This document shows positions 3,961 through 13,345 of a stretch of 27,650 nt of DNA, one piece after another (positions within the stretch are counted from its first letter, which is position 1; each line of letters opens with the position of its first letter). The translations under genes were made by a program, and so were the position numbers. The notes under the pieces are model-generated. The model ran no database searches. It had not been told where the DNA came from and was given only the letters and a program-made list of their open reading frames with translations. Where the stretch lies: IMG/VR virus record IMGVR_UViG_3300036797_000125, positions 1 through 27,650 of that record; one strand, given 5' to 3'. The DNA is from a virus. Lineage: Duplodnaviria > Caudoviricetes.

Positions 3961-4041
3961 ACGTAGAATTTATTTTTCGAGTAAGTGCAAGTGAAGCGCG
4001 AAAAAGTGAGATTAATATTATTAGAGACGGAGGGAAAACGA

Positions 4042-4548
4042 ATGACAAAACGATTATCTTTCGAAGAGGTGCAAGCGAAATTCAAAGAACGGGGATATAG
4101 ATTACTAGAAACGGAATATAAAAACGCTCAAACTAAAATGCGTTATATATGCCCGAAACATCCAAATGATCCGCAGACAATTCGGTTTAAAAGTTTAAAA
4201 AGAGGTTCTGGTTGTCTATTGTGCGGAAAAGAGAAAACGAAAAGATCGCGTGAAATTAACGGTTTAATAGGAGTCGCTAAACGCGAATATCCGAAAGAGG
4301 AAGTAAAGGCAGCTCGTTACAAAGCGGAGGACTTATTAAACGAGTACTGTATGTCCTGTCCGTTTAATAGTTTAACGAGCGTTGAGGACGTACAGAAACA
4401 TTGTTATAAAGAGTGTCCGTATGAAATCGGATTAGAACTACGTAAGTGCGGCGCAATTATGGCCGGTGAGGATGTCGATGCTGTAACGGAGCATTATGTA
4501 GTCAAGCATACGCTTGAACGTATTGATCGTAATGAGGCGACGGTATAA
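4042..4548 (+). CDS. Cys-rich zinc-finger phage protein
   Basis: CPKH...GCLLC and YCMSC...HCYKECPYEIGLELRKCG; GGAGGG RBS before ATG 4042. Confidence 0.7.
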   Translation: MTKRLSFEEVQAKFKERGYRLLETEYKNAQTKMRYICPKHPNDPQTIRFKSLKRGSGCLLCGKEKTKRSREINGLIGVAKREYPKEEVKAARYKAEDLLNEYCMSCPFNSLTSVEDVQKHCYKECPYEIGLELRKCGAIMAGEDVDAVTEHYVVKHTLERIDRNEATV

Positions 4549-5312
4549 TGCAATGCATTCTATCCGATCACTGTTCGTTATACAAAAGCGAATCATGTAA
4601 CCGTCAGTGCACATCGTACATCGCACTACACGGATTCAACGGTAATGGAGGACGTATGGTAGCGACCAACTTACCGAAAGAATACCGTCATTTAACGTTA
4701 CTAAATTCGCCTGTAAAGGACACACAACCGAAAGTCTATAAATCTATCGAAGCATATGTAACGACCTTTATGCGACAGTTTGAGGGAAATGAGGCAACGG
4801 ATGTAAAAGATAAGATCAAATCGATGTATCTGTTTTCCGAAGAAACTGGCACGGGGAAAACGACGACGGCATCCGTAATTTTAAACGAGTGGCTCATACG
4901 GCATTACATCGGAAGTTTGCAACGAAATAGGCAATCGTTGCAGGTACCGGCGTTCTTTCTAGACGTCAATTATTTTCAAACGTTATTCAACGAATTCAAT
5001 CGGTCAAACATACCGAAAGAAGTCGCGGAGAAATCGGCAAAGGAATACTATCGTCGCATGAGTAACGCGAAGACGGCTCCTTTCGCAGTACTAGACGATA
5101 TTGGAGTTCGTAGTGCAACCGAAGCATTTCGAGGGGATTTACATGCGGTGATTAACCATCGAGTAACGAACGGATTACCTACGGTTTACACTTCAAACAT
5201 TCCTATCGAAGAGTTGGAAGGTGTGTTTGATCGTAGGTTGTACGATAGAGTTCGAGATTTGTGCGTAGTGCTACCGTTCGAGGGCGAGTCGAAAAGGGGG
5301 ATGCGGAAATAA
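4548..5312 (+). CDS. DnaC/IstB-like ATPase (helicase loader)
   Basis: Walker A TGTGKTT, Walker B AVLDDIG, PTVYTSN, RLYDRVR; N-terminal Cys cluster. Confidence 0.9.
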   Translation: MQCILSDHCSLYKSESCNRQCTSYIALHGFNGNGGRMVATNLPKEYRHLTLLNSPVKDTQPKVYKSIEAYVTTFMRQFEGNEATDVKDKIKSMYLFSEETGTGKTTTASVILNEWLIRHYIGSLQRNRQSLQVPAFFLDVNYFQTLFNEFNRSNIPKEVAEKSAKEYYRRMSNAKTAPFAVLDDIGVRSATEAFRGDLHAVINHRVTNGLPTVYTSNIPIEELEGVFDRRLYDRVRDLCVVLPFEGESKRGMRK

Positions 5313-5430
5313 AAAATGACCGCTCCTTTTATCAGAACGGCCGTACAAGTATCCATATGTTGGAGGTCATCACAAATGGCTTAAGGCGTCTTCTCTAAGC
5401 AGTATGGACAATGATTTTTACGATTATACA
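5311..5430 (-). ncRNA. Putative sRNA unit 1 (SigG-like promoter, anti-SD segment, terminator)
   Basis: Minus strand TGTATA(5430-5425)-N18-CATACT(5406-5401); hairpin plus U6 at 5344-5311; plus strand contains GGAGGTCATCACAAATGGCT. Confidence 0.55.
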
Positions 5431-5432
5431 TT

Positions 5433-5565
5433 AAAACGGTGAGTAACCAAATAGGCTACCCGCTACGTCCCTGCATGATACGGAGGAGAAACCCCGTTTT
5501 GAAAGAGTGAAGTCGAAGGGAGATCGGCTCAAAGATAGTATGCGCAAAACAAAAACGATTATTCA
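5433..5565 (-). ncRNA. Putative sRNA unit 2 (SigG consensus promoter)
   Basis: Minus TGAATA(5565-5560)-N17-CATACTA(5542-5536); imperfect hairpin ~5437-5464 followed by a U-tract; plus strand GGAGGAGAAACCCCGTTTTG. Confidence 0.55.
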
Positions 5566-5582
5566 AAAGGGAGAATACGAAA

Positions 5583-5741
5583 ATGAAGAAACTTATTATC
5601 GGTGCATTTCTATATTTACCGTTAGCTTTCTGGCTTAGTTATTTTTGCGGAATCAGTACGGTTGAAGTGCTCGCAACAATGTTTATTGTCGGAGTTACCG
5701 GCGGGATCTACAACGTAGTATTGGAAGAAGCGGAAAAGTAG
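5583..5741 (+). CDS. Small membrane protein, 52 aa, two hydrophobic segments
   Basis: MKKLIIGAFLYLPLAFWLSYFCGISTVEVLATMFIVGVTGGIYNVVLEEAEK; AAGGGAG RBS. Confidence 0.7.
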   Translation: MKKLIIGAFLYLPLAFWLSYFCGISTVEVLATMFIVGVTGGIYNVVLEEAEK

Positions 5742-5794
5742 GTATGTGAAGTAAGACCAAATTTGAATTTTGTTAAGAAATGGAGAGATGGAAA

Positions 5795-6049
5795 ATGAGA
5801 AAAGTGGAAATTACAGTAGAAGAAAGAATTAAGAGGAAAATATCTTATGATTTTATCTTGCCAGAGCATGTATCCGAAAGTCAGATGAATATCATAATTG
5901 CCCGTGTAGAAAGTCGTTCGGATTGTGCTGATGATGTTGTACATTTGTTGCAAAAAGAAATACCTAGTTTGAAAGTGCAAAAAGTAGAAGAAACAGACTT
6001 GAATTTTGATGATGCTGAAATAATTGGTTATGACATAAAAGAAAACTAA
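5795..6049 (+). CDS. Hypothetical phage protein
   Basis: ORF after GGAGAG RBS, bounded by junction palindromes at 5757 and 6051. Confidence 0.7.
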   Translation: MRKVEITVEERIKRKISYDFILPEHVSESQMNIIIARVESRSDCADDVVHLLQKEIPSLKVQKVEETDLNFDDAEIIGYDIKEN

Positions 6050-6086
6050 ACCAAAGCGTTATTTGAATCGAAAAGGAGAATGAGAG

Positions 6087-6437
6087 ATGGAAAATAGTGA
6101 AATTAACAATTTAATTGCAGAAAAAGTAATGGGATGGCATTTACAAAAAATGAAACATGTAGCAGCTTGGATTGATGAAAATAGTAACTGGACTTTAAAA
6201 CAAATATGGAACCCTTCGAATGATATCCGAGATGCATGGCAAGTTGTAGAGAAAATGAGAAAGGATTATGATTTTTGGTTCGAGTTAACTACACCAGAAT
6301 CATTTTCTTTAAAAACAAAATGTTATTTCCAATTAGATGATATTGATGTAAGTGCTGTCTGTGAAATTGCGCCATTGGCTATCTGTAAGGCTGCATTACT
6401 AGCGATTGAAGCGAAAAATAAAAACTTAACAAAATAG
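6087..6437 (+). CDS. Phage ABA-sandwich (BC1872-like) protein
   Basis: LIAEKVMGW...WNPSNDIRDAWQVVEKMR...APLAICKAAL; AAAGGAG RBS. Confidence 0.75.
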   Translation: MENSEINNLIAEKVMGWHLQKMKHVAAWIDENSNWTLKQIWNPSNDIRDAWQVVEKMRKDYDFWFELTTPESFSLKTKCYFQLDDIDVSAVCEIAPLAICKAALLAIEAKNKNLTK

Positions 6438-6462
6438 TTATTTTGCAGAAAGGATGTATCGC

Positions 6463-6670
6463 AATGAGTAGTGCATGTATATGTCACATTGATCAAAATA
6501 AATGTTTGTGGTGTAAGAAAAATATATATTTCAGTACATTTTCTCAAGGCGTAGCTATTAATTTTCCGAATGGGCGGATAACGATGTTGCATACAAGGGA
6601 TATGACGAAGGCTCGTGATTTAGCTGAGATTCTAAAAGAAACCGTTGTAAATATCGAGGAATTAAATTAA
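6463..6670 (+). CDS. Small Cys-containing hypothetical protein
   Basis: GAAAGGA RBS before ATG 6463; CxC...CxxC. Confidence 0.65.
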
Positions 6671-6690
6671 ACAAAATTCTTATTTTAAAT

Positions 6691-6804
6691 AAAAAGAGCG
6701 CTTTTAAAAGCGCTCGTTGACCAAGAATTGTATTGAAAAAAGTACTCAATGAATAATACTGAGATGATCATGAGTATTGTATGTAAATTTCTAATGTATG
6801 TGCA
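6691..6804 (-). ncRNA. Putative sRNA unit 3 (SigK consensus promoter)
   Basis: Minus AC(6801-6800)-N16-CATACAATA; perfect palindrome GAGCGCTTTTAAAAGCGCTC followed by U5. Confidence 0.5.
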
Positions 6805-6839
6805 GCTTTTAAGTGGAATTTTTATTTCATAGCAAATAC

Positions 6840-6939
6840 AAAAGAGCACACATATAAGCGTGCTCTTCGATAAAAAAGGAGAACCCTATGAGTGGAAGGT
6901 CTTCATAAAATAACATATGTTTGTCCGGTTTAAAGGTGA
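6840..6939 (-). ncRNA. Putative sRNA unit 4 (SigK consensus promoter)
   Basis: Minus AC(6937-6936)-N16-CATATGTTA; stem AAGAGCAC/GTGCTCTT; plus strand AAGGAGAACCCTATGAGTGG. Confidence 0.55.
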
Positions 6940-7035
6940 CAAGTTTTAATAAAATCTTTATTTTAAAAAGCGAACGAAAAACATCACTGGATCCAATGAA
7001 AGTTCGTGATTTAATACAAAATCGTTATTTCATAG

Positions 7036-7137
7036 AAAAAAAGAGCACACATATAAGCATGCTCTTAGATAATTAAGGTTGGTTTTATGAGTGGCTAATC
7101 CCATGCAATAACATATACTTGTTCGGTAAAAAGGTGA
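7036..7137 (-). ncRNA. Putative sRNA unit 5, paralog of unit 4
   Basis: Near-identical terminator and promoter (AC-N16-TATATGTTA); diverged middle AAGGTTGGTTTTATGAGTGG. Confidence 0.5.
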
Positions 7138-7167
7138 AAAAATTTTGACGAAATCGTTATTTAAATG

Positions 7168-7280
7168 AAAAGACAACAAACGGAGGGGTTTGCTGCCTTG
7201 GTAAAAAGGAATGGCACTAAGTATAAATTACAGAGGTAACTGGTTAGTTAAAGTATATGTATTATATATAAAAATATCAC
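7168..7280 (-). ncRNA. Putative sRNA unit 6 (SigE-like promoter)
   Basis: Minus TGATATT...CATATACT with slightly short spacing; stem AAGACAACAAAC/GTTTGCTGCCTT whose mismatches are G-U pairs only on the minus strand. Confidence 0.45.
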
Positions 7281-7333
7281 CAAACCAAGGTGAGGATTAT
7301 TAAACACAAACGCTATTTTAGTAGAAAACATTT

Positions 7334-7438
7334 AAAAGGCCCTGTTTTTTAGACAGGACCTTAAAAAAGGGAATGACTGTTAACAACTGAAGGTACCTTT
7401 ATATTACCATTATTGGAACTCTAATTCCATATGTCGAA
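7334..7438 (-). ncRNA. Putative sRNA unit 7 (Spo0A box plus extended -10)
   Basis: TGTCGAA at 7432-7438; minus TGgTAATAT at 7409-7401; stem AAGGCCCTGT/ACAGGACCTT; plus strand AAAGGGAATGACT. Confidence 0.4.
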
Positions 7439-7466
7439 TGTTGAGAAATAAAAACTTCATTTGGCA

Positions 7467-7589
7467 CAACAAAGTAGCCAGCTTAATTAGCTAACCACTT
7501 GTTGTACAAAAGAAAATTAGGCCCTACAAGTAATGATGTGTAACCTTAAGTTACAGTTGTAGTGTAAACAAGATTGGAAAAGTTATACG
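7467..7589 (-). ncRNA. Putative sRNA unit 8 (degenerate SigG-like promoter)
   Basis: Minus GTATA(7588-7584)-N17-TACACTA; hairpin related to the AGCAGCTAGC...AGCTAACTGCT type seen in units 9 and 10. Confidence 0.4.
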
Positions 7590-7622
7590 GAAGTGAACTT
7601 AATAAAAACTTCATTTTAGTAG

Positions 7623-7657
7623 AAAAAGATAGGTTTCCTTATTAGGGAAACCTGTCC
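7623..7657 (-). terminator. Intrinsic terminator of the DUF4183-like gene
   Basis: GATAGGTTTCC-ttattag-GGAAACCTGTC stem with A5 on its left (U-tract on minus). Confidence 0.7.
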
Positions 7658-7666
7658 AAAAATAGA

Positions 7667-7954
7667 TTAAGTTACAATAAACTCGACTGTAACTGGAGTC
7701 GCTGGATCAAGTACATCTCCACCAGGGATGGTAATTGAAGAAGGGCCAACAGTAATAGTTGAGGTATCGCCTACTTGAAGTATGCCATTGATGTAGAGAT
7801 TATAATATGTGAACGAATTTGGGAATGTTGAAGTTCCACCTGTATCATTAGTGAAAGCTGTAGCAACAATCGCAAACGTAGCACCTGTACCTGTACCCGC
7901 AGATATTGTAGAAATAAATCTTCTGGAGGCTATAAACGGTGGTATTATTGCCAT
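7667..7954 (-). CDS. DUF4183-like small protein (spore-surface association inferred)
   Basis: AFTNDTG...YYNLYINGILQ...TPVTVEF pattern; GAGGTG RBS; own terminator; opposite to phage orientation. Confidence 0.75.
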   Translation of the reverse strand: MAIIPPFIASRRFISTISAGTGTGATFAIVATAFTNDTGGTSTFPNSFTYYNLYINGILQVGDTSTITVGPSSITIPGGDVLDPATPVTVEFIVT

Positions 7955-8159
7955 TTATAATTCACCTCTTTCTTATTTTTACTAGAACTAGTTTGTAAGA
8001 AAACTTGTTCTGTATTGTATTCTATGAAGTTCTTTAATATTAGAAGCGGCTTATGAACTGGTGCATAAGTGTAAATATCAATTTAGACATATTGTTGTTA
8101 AATAAGGATGACTATGTACAAAAATTTCATTTTGTATAGAAGTGAGGTGAAAAACAAGC

Positions 8160-8327
8160 ATGTTAACTTGGATAACAATTGGTGTCCTTATTTATTTGAT
8201 AATCGGATTAGGATTATTAGTTTGGTCAGTGACTACTTCTTCCTGGGGAGGAATCATATTGTGTTTTGCGATTCCAATTATTTTCTTCTGGCCTTACTTC
8301 ATTATCAGAAGTTTATTCGATAGATAA
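8160..8327 (+). CDS. Small membrane protein, 55 aa
   Basis: MLTWITIGVLIYLIIGLGLLVWSVTTSSWGGIILCFAIPIIFFWPYFIIRSLFDR; GAGGTG RBS. Better supported than the tracked 8108 frame. Confidence 0.7.
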   Translation: MLTWITIGVLIYLIIGLGLLVWSVTTSSWGGIILCFAIPIIFFWPYFIIRSLFDR

Positions 8328-8430
8328 AAGAGCAGCTAGCAAAAGCTAACTGCTCTCCAGAAAAGCATTAAGAAGGAAGTTCAGAACTCAAGTGTATTTA
8401 TAGTATGGACAAGATTTAGAAATTTATTCG
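8326..8430 (-). ncRNA. Putative sRNA unit 9 (SigG consensus promoter)
   Basis: Minus GAATA(8429-8425)-N17-CATACTA(8407-8401); terminator GAGCAGCTAGC-aaaa-GCTAACTGCTC. Confidence 0.55.
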
Positions 8431-8444
8431 AGGAGGAACGGATA

Positions 8445-8531
8445 ATGTGCACTTATTGGGAAAACGCAGTTAAAGAATTCTTCAAGAAGCAAGAGCAGGA
8501 ACGGAATAAAAGAGCAGCTAGCAAAAGCTAA
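8445..8531 (+). CDS. 28-aa mini-protein
   Basis: GAGGAGG RBS; MCTYWENAVKEFFKKQEQERNKRAASKS. Confidence 0.5.
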   Translation: MCTYWENAVKEFFKKQEQERNKRAASKS

Positions 8532-8601
8532 CTGCTCACCTAATGGAGGTCTTGTCTCAACTAGGTGTCTATAGTATTGACGGAATGTTGATTTTTATTC
8601 A
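8508..8601 (-). ncRNA. Putative sRNA unit 10 (SigG-like promoter)
   Basis: Minus TGAATA(8601-8596)-N17-AATACTA; same terminator as unit 9; plus strand ATGGAGGTCTTG. Confidence 0.55.
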
Positions 8602-8611
8602 GGGGGTAGAG

Positions 8612-8725
8612 ATGAAAAAGTTTATTGAGCTAGTAAATCATTACTATATTGAACCTGCTAAAGAAAAAGGGTTTTGGATTACATTCATAATTGTAGCGAG
8701 CAATATGTATTGGATTAATAAATGA
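8612..8725 (+). CDS. Small hypothetical protein, 37 aa
   Basis: AGGGGG RBS before ATG 8612. Confidence 0.5.
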   Translation: MKKFIELVNHYYIEPAKEKGFWITFIIVASNMYWINK

Positions 8726-8769
8726 GTTTTAAAACAAATAATCCTTTTAGAAGAAAGCGAGGCTAAACA

Positions 8770-9054
8770 ATGACTGCATACCCAACGAAAGAACAAGAAA
8801 CGGTATTAACTTTCGACAACGAAACGAAGGAATGGAGCGCATACTCTTGTGTTCCTAAACACATTCGTAAACTAGTAGAGATAGTCGGAGCGGAAAACGT
8901 TACAGTTATCGAAAAGGATGACGACTCTATCTTAGCGGTGAAATGTACGTTACAAGAAAAGCAAGTAAGTATGAAAAAAGTACGTCAGTATAGCGAGGAT
9001 CAGAAACGTAAGATGGCGGAAAGAATGCGAGCGGTTCGTGGTGTTGTGGATTGA
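8770..9054 (+). CDS. Hypothetical phage protein
   Basis: 94-aa ORF with GAGG RBS; EQETVLTFD...WSAYSCVPKHIRKL. Confidence 0.75.
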   Translation: MTAYPTKEQETVLTFDNETKEWSAYSCVPKHIRKLVEIVGAENVTVIEKDDDSILAVKCTLQEKQVSMKKVRQYSEDQKRKMAERMRAVRGVVD

Positions 9055-9178
9055 CTAATATATTCGTTTTAAAAATAGGATAAATACAAAACTGCAATTT
9101 TTCATTAAACTCTTAAGTACAAACGCTCTTTGACAACCGAATAAAAATCGCTCAAAAAACAAAATGGAGGTGTATTTA

Positions 9179-10522
9179 ATGAACTACGGAGAAATGCTTT
9201 TATCGAAAGTGGTAGATACCGCTAACCCTGTTCAACTTAACCATGTAACAGAACGTGACTTTGTTACAGCTTCGGAAAAGAAAGCGTACCGTTTTATCAA
9301 AGATTACGTAGAAACTAATCGAGGGAAAACGCCCGACTTTCGCACGCTAGTAGCAGAAGTCGACGGCTTCACATACGTCCCAAATGTCGAGGATAGTTTC
9401 GAGTATTTAACGAAACAAATCAAGTCTTATAGCGCTAAAATCGAAGTGATGGAACTCTTACAGAACGAAGCGCCTACCCAATTTGAGGAAAAAGACGGAA
9501 ATAGTTTCCTAGAATGGTTGCGAGAAAAAGTAGACGGAGTTATAATTAGAACAAACGTTCGAGGTAAGGTCGGAACAAGCTTAAAAGCCGATGCAAACAA
9601 GTTTCTCGAAGAATATGATCGCAGGAAAAAAGGCGAGTCATATCGCATTTGGAACAGTCGTTTTCCATTCATTAATAAAGCGATTGGTGGCTACGTTTCT
9701 TCGAACATCTACACGATCTACGGAAAGTCAGGGCGTGGTAAATCCGCAACGACTATCGAAGAAGGCGTAGAGATGGCGTTTCAAGGTGCGAACGTACTAA
9801 TCTGGCTAATGGAAATGGGTTGGTTCGAAGGGATGGTTCGTTTATATACTTCGATTTCTTCTCGTATCGGTGCGACTGTAGCCGAATTAGATGGCGTAAA
9901 TCTAGAAGCGGGATTCGATTCGAAAGAAATCCGTCACGGTAAGTTATCGGAGGAATTCGAAGAAGGATTCAAAACGTTTTTAGCAAACATTAACGATATT
10001 TTACCTGGTAACATAATTGTACGAGGCGTAGATGACGACGACTTTCATCGAAGGGATTTACGTCAATTAGAAGTAGACATTACGGAAACGAACGCAGATG
10101 TCGTTATAGTCGATCCGTTCTATTATCTCGATTATGAGAAAAATACGTCCAAAACAGCCGGTGGAGATGCTGCCGAAACATCGAAAGGATTACGTCGATT
10201 AGCAGGTAAGACAGGCGTAGTAATGTTCGCTATCACACAAGCGGATGAAGTCGATAATAATGAAGACGAAGATGGTCAGAGGGAATTACGCTTACCGAAA
10301 CGTAGTGAAGTAAAGAAAACGAAAGCGCTTTTGGAGGATGCGGCGCTATTGATAGCAGTAGATACTGACTCCAAACAAGGACGTGGCATGATCGGTATAA
10401 ACAAAGGACGAGATGGTGGCGAAGGTGAATCTGCCGAAATCATTTACATGCCACAGATTGGCGTAATTAAAGAAATGGAAACCGGCGAACAGGCAGCAAA
10501 ACAATTTACGAGTGTATTCTAG
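9179..10522 (+). CDS. DnaB-like replicative helicase
   Basis: Walker A YGKSGRGKS, LMEM, VVIVDPFY, AITQA, KGRDG; GGAGGTG RBS before ATG 9179. Confidence 0.92.
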   Translation: MNYGEMLLSKVVDTANPVQLNHVTERDFVTASEKKAYRFIKDYVETNRGKTPDFRTLVAEVDGFTYVPNVEDSFEYLTKQIKSYSAKIEVMELLQNEAPTQFEEKDGNSFLEWLREKVDGVIIRTNVRGKVGTSLKADANKFLEEYDRRKKGESYRIWNSRFPFINKAIGGYVSSNIYTIYGKSGRGKSATTIEEGVEMAFQGANVLIWLMEMGWFEGMVRLYTSISSRIGATVAELDGVNLEAGFDSKEIRHGKLSEEFEEGFKTFLANINDILPGNIIVRGVDDDDFHRRDLRQLEVDITETNADVVIVDPFYYLDYEKNTSKTAGGDAAETSKGLRRLAGKTGVVMFAITQADEVDNNEDEDGQRELRLPKRSEVKKTKALLEDAALLIAVDTDSKQGRGMIGINKGRDGGEGESAEIIYMPQIGVIKEMETGEQAAKQFTSVF

Positions 10523-11558: not shown

Positions 11559-11777
11559 TTATTCCGTTTCCCATTCGTACAACTCTTCGATGTCACAATG
11601 TAATACGGACGCAATGTTACGCACTCGTTCCACATTCGGCAAATTACGCAAGCTGATATAATCGCTTATGGATTGCGGTGTTATACGCAGTTTTCTAGCG
11701 AGTTCGGCTTGTGTAATGCCATTTTTCTTACACAGTTCGGGAATACGGCACCTTCCGACTTTAAACGATGTAATCAC
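11559..11777 (-). CDS. XRE-family HTH regulator
   Basis: ITQAELARKLRITPQSISDYI...PNVERVRNIASVLHCDIEELY; start uncertain. Confidence 0.85.
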   Translation of the reverse strand: MITSFKVGRCRIPELCKKNGITQAELARKLRITPQSISDYISLRNLPNVERVRNIASVLHCDIEELYEWETE

Positions 11778-12127: not shown

Positions 12128-13345
12128 GTGCCGGGGTTTCATAGAGAGATATGCGATATTATTAATGATAGAGACGATATAACATTTACAGCAGTTAGTG
12201 AGAGAATCGAAGCGTCAAAACAATGTATGTCTAAATTTAAAAAGGATGGAACCATAGGGTTTAGAAAGCTTTTGAGACTCTCCTATTACCTATTCCCTGA
12301 TAATCAGGCGGATAAGATGTCTAAATGGTGCCTACAGTTAGATTCGGCAGAGTCTATTCAGCAAAGTTTAGAATACGCAGCGATTACTAGGAATGTTGAT
12401 CTACTTAAGAAACTAATAACAAAGCATAAAAAAGAAGATGGTGTAATTAAGGATTATATAAATGTATACCGTATTCTATACAAGTACATGGTAGATGAAA
12501 TAGAGGGGTTTGATCTTATTGATGAGCTACGTAAAATAGGTCAAATAGAGGATAGTACCTTAGTGATTTTAGTGAATATTATGAAATGTTATACATATTA
12601 CTTCGAAAGAAAGTTTCATTTGATGTTAGAAGTTGCAAAAGAGGCTGAACAAATGATCTTCGATTTAAGTGATGCGAGAAAACTATTTATTAAAGAATGC
12701 TACTTACATAGATTAGCAGAAATATTAGCACCTATATATTTGTTCCAAAATCAATTAGATTTAGCTAGACATTATTCTTTTTTAATAACTAATGCTAATA
12801 TCTGCGCGAAAACCGTTTCAGATGCGTCATACTATATAGGGATGTCGTACTTATTAGAAGATATTGATAAATGTTTGGAGTATCTTCTAAAGAGTCACGA
12901 TATCGCCAAGACTATCGGAGAAGAGTATTTCGAAACGGAAACAAGATATAATTTGGACTATGTGAATGTTTACTTAGGTAAACCTCTAGGGTTAAAATCC
13001 GACCCAAGATTAATCATGTATCAGAATAATAGGTTAAACGGGAAGTTAATTGATGATATAGTAGAAGAAAGGGGAGAAAGAGATTTTTTATTAATGTATC
13101 AAGCACTTAATCAAAACTCACTTCCAAAATTATACGAATGTTTTCAAAAGTTTTTTTCGAATTCAAATTTCTTTTTCTCCGGGTTAGTCGCAAAGGAAAT
13201 CTATGAACGAGGAGATCGTTCTATGATGACCCAAACGTTGATTAATTTTAAATCTAATAACGAAAATGGAGATGTTCAATTTGAAAAAAATTATATTAGG
13301 TGTTTTAGCAACTTTGACTTTAGCGATGGGAGTTTTTGCGCTTAA
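12128..13345 (+). CDS. aimR: Arbitrium peptide receptor AimR (HTH plus TPR, RRNPP family)
   Basis: ~400 aa, N-terminal HTH, SLEYA motif, helical TPR-like body, immediately followed by a secreted-peptide gene. Confidence 0.88.
   Translation: MPGFHREICDIINDRDDITFTAVSERIEASKQCMSKFKKDGTIGFRKLLRLSYYLFPDNQADKMSKWCLQLDSAESIQQSLEYAAITRNVDLLKKLITKHKKEDGVIKDYINVYRILYKYMVDEIEGFDLIDELRKIGQIEDSTLVILVNIMKCYTYYFERKFHLMLEVAKEAEQMIFDLSDARKLFIKECYLHRLAEILAPIYLFQNQLDLARHYSFLITNANICAKTVSDASYYIGMSYLLEDIDKCLEYLLKSHDIAKTIGEEYFETETRYNLDYVNVYLGKPLGLKSDPRLIMYQNNRLNGKLIDDIVEERGERDFLLMYQALNQNSLPKLYECFQKFFSNSNFFFSGLVAKEIYERGDRSMMTQTLINFKSNNENGDVQFEKNYIRCFSNFDFSDGSFCA
12803..12831 (+). promoter_or_regulatory. Bipartite motif copy 2, inside aimR
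   Basis: TGCGCG-aaaaccgtttcaga-TGCGTCATA with N14 spacing. Confidence 0.5.

Follow-up and report, generated by a model that had tools for sequence, protein, structure and literature searches.

Phages of spore-forming bacteria face a host that closes down and divides into two cells that differ in their transcription machinery. The way in which a prophage is kept silent or carried through sporulation has been worked out for just a few lytic phages (phi29 and Spo0A). The question arises at a locus in IMG/VR virus record IMGVR_UViG_3300036797_000125, which we analysed over positions 1 to 27,650 (the window). Between 5311 and 8601, the gaps between the plus-strand early genes hold about ten short units that point the other way, each with a terminator hairpin and most with promoter boxes that resemble those read by sporulation sigma factors. 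What are these units, when might they be transcribed and what might they do?

IMG/VR classes the record as a provirus (27.65 kb, approximately 45% complete according to CheckV), and an integrase is present, in agreement with an earlier annotation of this DNA (the original prediction) that had called it a prophage. The record is related to temperate siphophages from the Bacillus cereus group, namely phBC6A51, BceA1/SpaA1, MY192, phi4B1 and WBeta/Gamma/Fah. Sequence comparison establishes the units themselves, their orientation, their terminators, their lack of coding capacity and their membership in a very large cassette family. In that family, as judged from the same comparisons, standard expression signals are combined with at least 45 bodies, often in tandem, in phages of the B. 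cereus group. On balance, we favour reading the units as about ten independent minus-strand mini-genes that would be transcribed by sporulation sigma factors of the host and would act as antisense brakes on the early (replication) operon of the prophage during sporulation.

Promoter boxes, terminators and coding capacity

Pattern scans of the minus strand recovered, in place, every promoter string listed in the original prediction. Forespore-type boxes occur as TGAATA-N17-CATACTA (5565-5536), GAATA-N17-CATACTA (8429-8401), TGAATA-N17-AATACTA (8601-8572) and TGTATA-N18-CATACTG (5430-5401). Scored against TGAATA-N17/18-CATACTA, the two promoters of unit U1 reach 13/13 (U1a) and 11/13 (U1b), and those of units U9 and U10 reach 12/13 each. 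The exact string GAATA-N17/18-CATACTA is present twice in the whole window, counting both strands, and both copies are inside the array. For the mother cell, we take the SigK consensus to be AC, 16-17 nucleotides (nt) and CATAnnnTA. Exact copies of AC-N16-CATAnnnTA lie at 6801-6775 and 6937-6911, and a further copy at 7135 has one mismatch, a T instead of a C at the first -10 base.

A comparison with shuffled sequence had been proposed with the original prediction, and both box types proved to be in excess. On the minus strand of the region, four forespore-type matches score at least 11/13, against a mean of 0.15 in shuffles (none of 300 dinucleotide shuffles reached four), and three score at least 12/13, against 0.003. 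The SigK-type pattern AC-N16/17-CATAnnnTA occurs three times on this strand, against 0.19 expected (1 of 300 shuffles), although the information content of the motif is low and one of the three matches (7828) falls inside a DUF4183 gene. Sigma-70-like sites in 5000-9200 are at chance level (15, against 16.0 in shuffles). The SigE and SigF patterns had no match in the region, and a site at 7280 that had been described as SigE-like conforms only to a weak sigma-70 pattern (9/12). At 7438, where a Spo0A box followed by a -10-like element had been proposed, the letters are there (7438-7432 reads TTCGACA, a 0A box in complement, and 7409-7401 reads TGGTAATAT), but the Spo0A assignment is unsupported because a single 0A box is what chance would provide (approximately 0.8 by our own estimate).

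The strand that is read can be judged from the terminators. A terminator scan of 5000-9200 returned nine sites, all on the minus strand, compared with 2.3 +/- 1.7 in shuffles. In the whole window, our own scan detected 27 terminator-like hairpins on the minus strand and 8 on the plus strand. Between 5316 and 8537 it identified 11 minus-strand hairpins, ten of them strong and a weaker one (6904-6879) inside unit U3, and on the plus strand within 5311-8601 only two weak terminators. The U-tract adjoins the stems solely in the minus sense. The original prediction had noted, for several stems, mismatches that are G-U pairs on the minus strand only; in this sense, the non-Watson-Crick positions of the ten window stems comprise 16 G-U and 4 A-C. 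Among 130 distinct 11-bp hairpins from all loci, oriented by their T-tail alone, the corresponding numbers are 194 and 35 (98 hairpins have only G-U and 11 only A-C), a ratio that overstates the number of independent events because the hairpin sequences are related. Variants of the common hairpin keep their pairing through double changes, for example from GAGCAG/CTGCTC to GGACAG/CTGTCC.

The predicted layout of minus-strand promoter, short body and terminator holds for about ten repeats, except that three of them (U5, U6 and U7) do not have the sporulation-type promoter that the layout included. As had also been predicted, the transcripts appear to be non-coding: no Shine-Dalgarno (SD)-like motif precedes a start codon in nine of the ten predicted transcripts. 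The sole coding hint is a weak AAGG ahead of a TTG in U6, and the short ORFs in the units are not conserved. An Rfam search, which had been suggested as a check, gave no match at gathering score in the window; the six matches at E <= 5 were all far below their thresholds, and SurA, at 13.6 bits where 100 is the gathering score, was no more than noise.

A cassette family in phages of the B. cereus group

The terminator hairpin that U9 and U10 share is present as an exact copy in at least 123 IMG/VR stretches among the matches listed (approximately 330 estimated) and in 103 stretches of a set of species-representative genomes. The 80 titles listed of these 103 are Bacillus, mostly cereus-group species, with the exception of seven rows for 'Paenibacillus sp. 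102' and one for 'Bacillaceae bacterium'. Exact scans with other terminators returned three loci for that of U2 and none for that of U6.

Upstream of the common hairpin, the IMG/VR matches provide 122 distinct regions of 160 nt. A promoter that scores at least 11/13 occurs in 98 of these regions, compared with 1 on the reverse complement and 3 after shuffling, and of the 115 regions with a score of 10/13 or more, 99 have a 17-nt spacer. When both collections are combined, a promoter of at least 10/13 lies within 140 nt of the hairpin in 213 of 245 copies. These represent 186 distinct units, the bodies of which fall into 45 clusters. Several promoter families have the same boxes with unrelated spacers and bodies. 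Boxes that are kept over unrelated spacers are the pattern of a promoter, rather than of a single conserved block. The original prediction had been made dependent on the spacing being conserved in homologues, and the 17-nt spacing between boxes is retained across families. Among SigK-type units, the family of U3 and U4 (ten aligned members, alignment A2) keeps TTCAC...GACAAGCATATGTTA, two body motifs and the terminator, with invariant promoter boxes; the SigK-type motif is kept in nine of the ten members, and its variants are CATATAGTA and CATATATTA. Could the payload stem from a true gene start? A 20-mer taken from the commonest body matches only inside units (all 80 IMG/VR matches), which speaks against such an origin.

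The units have a consistent orientation. In five phages (the window, WBeta, MY192, BceA1 and phi4B1), where we counted as a unit any promoter with a terminator within 260 nt, 12 forespore-type units are antisense to the genes and none is sense; 11 box matches of equal quality on the sense strand all lack a terminator. Six SigK-type units arise from 10 antisense matches, compared with none from 5 sense matches, and for one of the six the terminator is that of the DUF4183 gene. Within 5.1 kb of a Bacillus thuringiensis prophage, one strand carries 13 terminators and the opposite strand 2, with tandem runs of five and seven units approximately 100-160 nt apart. These runs mix forespore-type and SigK-type boxes and include relatives of U1, U2, U3 and U9 from the window.

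The position of the units relative to genes is also regular. Of 190 distinct units, 105 are 7-22 nt from a plus-strand SD and start codon and thus mark gene boundaries; the other 85 precede another unit or no recognizable start. The window and MY192 have mainly the blocks that follow the terminators and U7 in common, and the units between them are swapped, so the cassettes also mark modular exchange points. Repeats (D1-D5) occur at gene ends in the window.

The forespore-type box pair was also looked for in a host genome. In a 5.4-Mb B. thuringiensis genome, exact GAATA-N17/18-CATACTA occurs three times, against four for a reversed control pattern. Two of the three matches are in the prophage array and the third is 29 nt upstream of fin, a forespore gene read by SigF/SigG. 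The fin ORF encodes 74 amino acids, is located beside pth and matches the Pfam family Fin (anti-sigma-F factor) with E = 5e-25.

Individual units and neighbouring genes

The array lies between a gene for a DnaC-like loader (4548-5312, plus strand) and a helicase gene (9164-10522, plus strand). Its G+C content (34% for 5311-8601) is below that of the rest of the window (39-40%), and it contains small plus-strand genes with PHROG matches at 5780-6049, 6087-6437, 6443-6670 and 8160-8327.

U1 (5308..5565, like all units on the minus strand) has two forespore-type promoters, at 5565-5536 and 5430-5401, and one common terminator (5344-5316 plus a U-tract, with three G-U pairs in the minus sense). 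It contains no SD-led ORF, and its predicted RNAs are approximately 215 and 85 nt in length. The -35 box is 18 nt from a plus-strand gene start (5583), and part of the unit is conserved in phages J5a, Athena and PHBA67-J. U2 (6688..6804) has the SigK-type promoter AC-N16-CATACAATA (6801-6775), which can also be read as the sigma-70-like TGCACA-N17-TACAAT, followed by a body of approximately 60 nt and a terminator at 6718-6693. Its boxes and their spacing are kept in MY192 and the B. thuringiensis prophage despite different spacer letters, and a piece of its terminator is common to Gamma, WBeta, Cherry and Fah. U3 (6833..6937) combines AC-N16-CATATGTTA (6937-6911) with a body of approximately 45 nt that includes a CU-rich stretch and a terminator (6868-6841, two G-U pairs) that is found in ten IMG/VR loci. 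U4 (7033..7135) has AC-N16-TATATGTTA, with its one mismatch, and a terminator at 7066-7041 (two G-U pairs); it is a diverged direct repeat of U3, with 90% identity over the terminator (repeats D6 and D7).

Upstream of U5 (7162..7280), the only candidate promoter elements are a weak sigma-70-like GTGATA-N17-TATACT and a TATAAT. This unit has a terminator at 7199-7170 (two G-U pairs) and no SD-led ORF. U6 (7325..7438) may use a sigma-70-like TCGACA-N17-AATAAT or the TGGTAATAT element, with the 0A-box complement at its upstream end and a terminator at 7360-7338; at this position, MY192 has a different unit, with TACATA-N17-CATACTA. The U7 segment (7440..7626) is conserved and non-coding, and no promoter could be named for it. 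It has a long hairpin (7507-7468, three G-U pairs) with a core like that of the common terminator hairpin, is approximately 80-84% identical to AP631, A16R1 and McSteamy, and can be aligned to MY192. Exact 16-nt direct repeats (AATAAAAACTTCATTT, plus strand; D9) bracket U7 at 7447-7462 and 7601-7616, as might result from the insertion or duplication of a cassette.

At the right end of the array, U9 (8318..8430) comprises CGAATA-N17-CATACTA (8430-8401), a body of approximately 45 nt that contains CUUCCUUCUU and the common terminator hairpin (8357-8328). Body cluster 1, with 20 distinct members, includes U9, which is 91.9% identical to a stretch of phi4B1 that is unannotated there. The -35 box of U9 is 15 nt from the start (8445) of a 28-amino-acid plus-strand ORF with a strong SD. 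U10 (8502..8601) comprises TGAATA-N17-AATACTA (8601-8572), a body of approximately 35 nt that forms a hairpin with CCUCC in its loop, and the common terminator hairpin (8537-8512); it belongs to body cluster 10, and its -35 box is 11 nt from a plus-strand gene start (8612). The 28-amino-acid ORF (8445-8531, plus strand; SD GAGGAGG) terminates inside the U10 hairpin, which therefore encodes its C-terminal residues, KRAASKS. The U9 hairpin likewise contains the end of another frame (8266-8349).

A plus-strand block, A(A/C)AAAnCGTTATTTnAnnnGAAAA, recurs at 6039-6073, 6422-6452, 6660-6694, 7016-7039, 7137-7171, 7293-7327 and 7591-7625. The blocks directly follow minus-strand terminators, lie at the ends of plus-strand genes and are among the few pieces in common with MY192. 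They may be recombination patches, UP-like elements or sites for a regulator.

The array also contains a protein-coding sporulation-type moron on the same strand as the units (segment 7627..7954). This DUF4183 gene (7954-7667, minus strand; 95 amino acids; Pfam PF13799, E = 1.9e-14) has its own terminator (7657-7627). DUF4183 proteins build F-ENA endospore appendages (PMC12357932), and the gene in the window encodes a phage-borne copy of a spore-surface fibre subunit, which suggests that the phage also changes the spore surface. The N terminus of the protein, MAIIPPF, resembles the N-terminal hook motif of F-ENA subunits; as for U7, no promoter class could be named for the gene. In WBeta, a collagen-like protein gene and a sigma-factor gene (33523-34938 and 31466-32212) near antisense units constitute further sporulation-related cargo.

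Elsewhere in the window, the integrase forms the left end and is followed by a plus-strand replication module with DnaD-like, DnaC-like, DnaB-like helicase and primase genes; an AimR-type regulator, DNA polymerase, ThyX and dUTPase are encoded farther to the right. Two replication gene sets seem to be present: the left-hand one consists of DnaD/DnaC/DnaB/primase, the right-hand one of DNA polymerase I, RuvC-like, ThyX and dUTPase. The AimR-like gene (12128-13345, plus strand; Pfam PF22871, E = 2e-32), which is accompanied by a small helix-turn-helix gene (11559-11777, minus strand), suggests an arbitrium-type lysis-lysogeny system. Immediately before the DnaC-like loader gene lies the gene of a 187-amino-acid protein (3985-4548, plus strand), in which a CapR homology domain was recognized (Pfam PF21817, E = 6e-6) and which gives PHROG endonuclease matches. 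Positions 5300-8700 match 24 sequencing runs, none of them listed as RNA; they are of DNA or unknown type and are mostly from soil metagenomes.

Possible functions and known relatives

If the units are antisense brakes, each would be a mini-gene with a promoter, a body of 35-215 nt without a ribosome-binding site and an intrinsic terminator. Units with TGAATA-N17-(C/A)ATACTA (U1, U9 and U10) would fire in the forespore under SigG or SigF, and those with AC-N16-CATAnnnTA (U2-U4) in the mother cell under SigK. The short RNAs, which would be fully complementary to the plus-strand polycistronic early message between genes, would pair with this message and expose the duplex to a double-strand RNase. 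Head-on polymerases from promoters 11-18 nt away from three plus-strand starts (5583, 8445 and 8612) would add transcriptional interference, and the two effects together would keep the lytic genes silent in both compartments. RNAs made in the forespore may persist in the dormant spore and act at germination. We prefer a brake in cis because the RNAs are complementary in the intergenic gaps and because the promoters abut plus-strand starts.

Several points weigh against this reading. Transcription during sporulation by host sigma factors is a prediction from sequence, and the silencing function is purely inferred. U5, U6 and U7 lack boxes of the sporulation type. The forespore consensus, TGAATA/GHATR at -35 and CATACTA/CATnHTA at -10 with 17-18 nt between them, is the yardstick for the forespore-type scores; the sigma consensus sequences reportedly go back to Nicholson 1989, Wang 2006, and Helmann and Moran 2002. 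Promoters of host genes for small, acid-soluble proteins of the spore (SASPs) score only 8-11/13, which makes the box score a crude classifier; they are too loose to calibrate it, and the background set included prophage loci. By the same weaker fit, the phage units are nearer to the consensus than most of the host promoters tested. The counts across the family are of related sequences, which are not independent samples. Furthermore, the commonest promoter variant has AATACTG instead of CATACTA (38 of 115), a form that may favour SigF or a phage factor. The commonest promoter 35-mer (TGAATAAAACTCAATATTCCGTCAATACTG; window 8572-8606) is conserved with its spacer included, which hints at a further or different constraint; the 35-mer also reads as three T(G/C)AATA repeats one helical turn (10-11 bp) apart, a hint of a DNA-binding protein site that overlaps the promoter. 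The bodies cast no independent vote for the minus strand because their folding energy has no strand preference (the minus sense gives the better fold for 84 units and the plus sense for 89); for U1, the fold is not unusual (z = -0.36) and z-scores are ordinary on both strands, and in the ten-member alignment the small 5' hairpins of the bodies are variable and weak. Finally, the reverse complements of many bodies read as an SD, 7-11 nt, an ATG and 4-9 codons.

The last of these points would be expected if the plus strand were functional, with the hairpin, an SD-sequestering stem and the micro-ORF forming a leader to regulate the downstream early gene at the level of stability or translation. 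One family has a micro-ORF in all 80 of its copies (six codons in 76 and four codons in 4), with two variants that are synonymous by our own reading; more than half of the distinct units (105 of 190) abut a plus-strand gene start and body folding is equally stable in the plus sense. We nevertheless consider a leader very unlikely, as the plus-sense hairpins contain A-C mismatches and have no U-tract, the frame and peptide of the micro-ORF differ among families (our own reading) and 85 of the 190 units precede another unit rather than a gene. The runs of five and seven units in the B. thuringiensis prophage leave no space for plus-strand genes that a leader could control. Alternatively, the units could be chiefly mobile linkers, the conserved ends of which (the terminator hairpin, the 35-mer and an AAATA(A/G)CGnTTTT block) serve as homology patches for the shuffling of early-gene modules, any RNA being without a role. 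The swapping of units between the window and MY192, with post-terminator blocks and U7 held in common, is consistent with such linkers, as are the exact hairpin in hundreds of otherwise different contigs, the 105 units at gene boundaries and the D1-D5 repeats at gene ends. Homology patches, however, need no U-tract, no strand-specific G-U pairs and no -35 and -10 boxes 17 nt apart over unrelated spacers; shuffling and RNA function are also mutually compatible. Linkers without an RNA function therefore seem quite unlikely to us.

Two other alternatives accept the RNAs and differ over what transcribes them or what they pair with. The boxes may be phage-borne targets of phage-encoded SigF-like sigma factors, in which case the units would be mainly a phage regulon, timed by phage development or prophage expression rather than by the host cascade. 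By our own reading against the consensus, the commonest -10 variant is shifted away from SigG and closer to a SigF-like form. A Sigma70_r2 gene is present in WBeta, in MY192 and in BceA1, each time within the early region that also holds the units, and the Fah factor is SigF-like in vitro (PMC9429907); the same source lists sporulation-like sigma factors in WBeta, MY192 and PfEFR-4/5 and calls their role for the phage unknown. Sigma70_r2 had no match in the whole 38,663-bp record of phi4B1, which has four units, nor in the window, which comes from a record only approximately 45% complete. A phage sigma factor is thus not required for units to exist, and SigK-type units would be outside the reach of a SigF-like factor, which leaves a phage-timed regulon unlikely. 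Somewhat less improbable, although still doubtful, is an action in trans on host messages, in which lysogenic-conversion small RNAs would adjust sporulation, the properties of the spore or germination by covering ribosome-binding sites with CU-rich, anti-SD-like stretches. Bodies with CCUCC, CUUCCUUCUU or UUUCUCC...CCCCC motifs, often in hairpin loops, fit this idea, as do a very diverse payload (45 clusters) behind standard signals and the proximity of other sporulation morons (F-ENA here, and the collagen-like protein and sigma factor in WBeta). Such anti-SD-like stretches are, however, unspecific. Searches of one B. thuringiensis genome with the 23-mer pattern of U3/U4 (up to three mismatches) found only the prophage's own copy, and BLAST of U9 against the same genome gave only prophage copies and chance-level matches (one host and two families).

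The antisense brake could also be part of something larger, although we hold this extension to be unlikely. The cassettes would form a standardized library, swapped among phages like integron cassettes, with a promoter specific to the forespore or the mother cell, a hypervariable payload of 20-60 nt and a shared terminator as a 'handle'; their boxes might in addition be the phage-borne targets sought for the SigF-like sigma factors of phages. The forespore set would be packed in the spore as programmable antisense RNAs that decide at germination whether the resident prophage or an incoming related phage expresses its early genes. If sporulation-timed antisense units are real, they would constitute a new general layer of phage-host coupling, with about ten cassettes per prophage in hundreds of B. 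cereus-group phage contigs. They would make it testable why many such phages carry sporulation-like sigma factors and would yield, for the B. cereus group, a compact collection of promoters and terminators that are specific to one compartment.

Literature searches found no published description of such units; the original prediction had likewise known of none. Several known systems share some of their features. OOP RNA of lambda and sar RNA of P22 are single units that depend on the housekeeping sigma factor and have a defined target (cII and ant, respectively). Like these, each unit here would have its own promoter and intrinsic terminator and give a short RNA that is not translated; it is placed backwards in the early region and is complementary to the early message. 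The units differ in that about ten stand in a row, mostly with sporulation-type boxes and with dozens of bodies, and have no established target. Sporulation-controlled small RNAs have reportedly been described in Bacillus subtilis, namely CsfG (SigF/SigG; Marchais 2011) and SurC (SigK; Silvaggi 2006). They resemble the units in being small and non-coding, with promoters that fit a forespore or mother-cell sigma consensus and with intrinsic terminators, but CsfG and SurC are single chromosomal genes kept across endospore formers, whereas the units are phage-borne, antisense, multi-copy and restricted to the B. cereus group. The promoter-early stem-loop (PeSL) cassettes of T4-type phages, said to have been described by Arbiol, Comeau and Krisch in 2010, are likewise repeated modules of promoter and stem-loop that bound small early genes in a hyperplastic region and serve as points of modular exchange. 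The promoters in PeSL cassettes share the direction of the genes, which they drive; the units counted here, 12 forespore-type and 6 SigK-type, all face the other way.

Prophages of Bacillus offer further parallels. In prophage SPbeta, sspC is under SigG control (PMC8270828). It is thus a prophage-borne gene under the host forespore factor, as is predicted for the units, although sspC encodes a protein (an SASP) and the units have no SD-led ORF. The same source covers bsrG/SR4 and yonT/SR6, type I toxin-antitoxin loci in which 100-200-nt antisense RNAs of prophages pair with a message transcribed from the other strand, much as we propose. No conserved small hydrophobic toxin ORF lies opposite the units, and the plus-strand micro-ORFs have 4-9 codons in a variable frame. 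One candidate toxin, an ORF at 6749-6832 (27 amino acids), was rejected: it has no SD and no Pfam match and is absent from the B. thuringiensis homologue. The bcr1-bcr18 repeats of the B. cereus group are 100-400 bp in length and mostly chromosomal (PMC6542083). Strand-specific RNA sequencing of Bacillus anthracis has recorded nine prophage genes with more antisense than sense signal; only an integrase is named. Judged by sequence, the units of the window would combine the cis-antisense RNAs of phages, such as OOP and sar, with sporulation-controlled small RNAs, such as CsfG, and thus probably represent known kinds of RNA in a new form.

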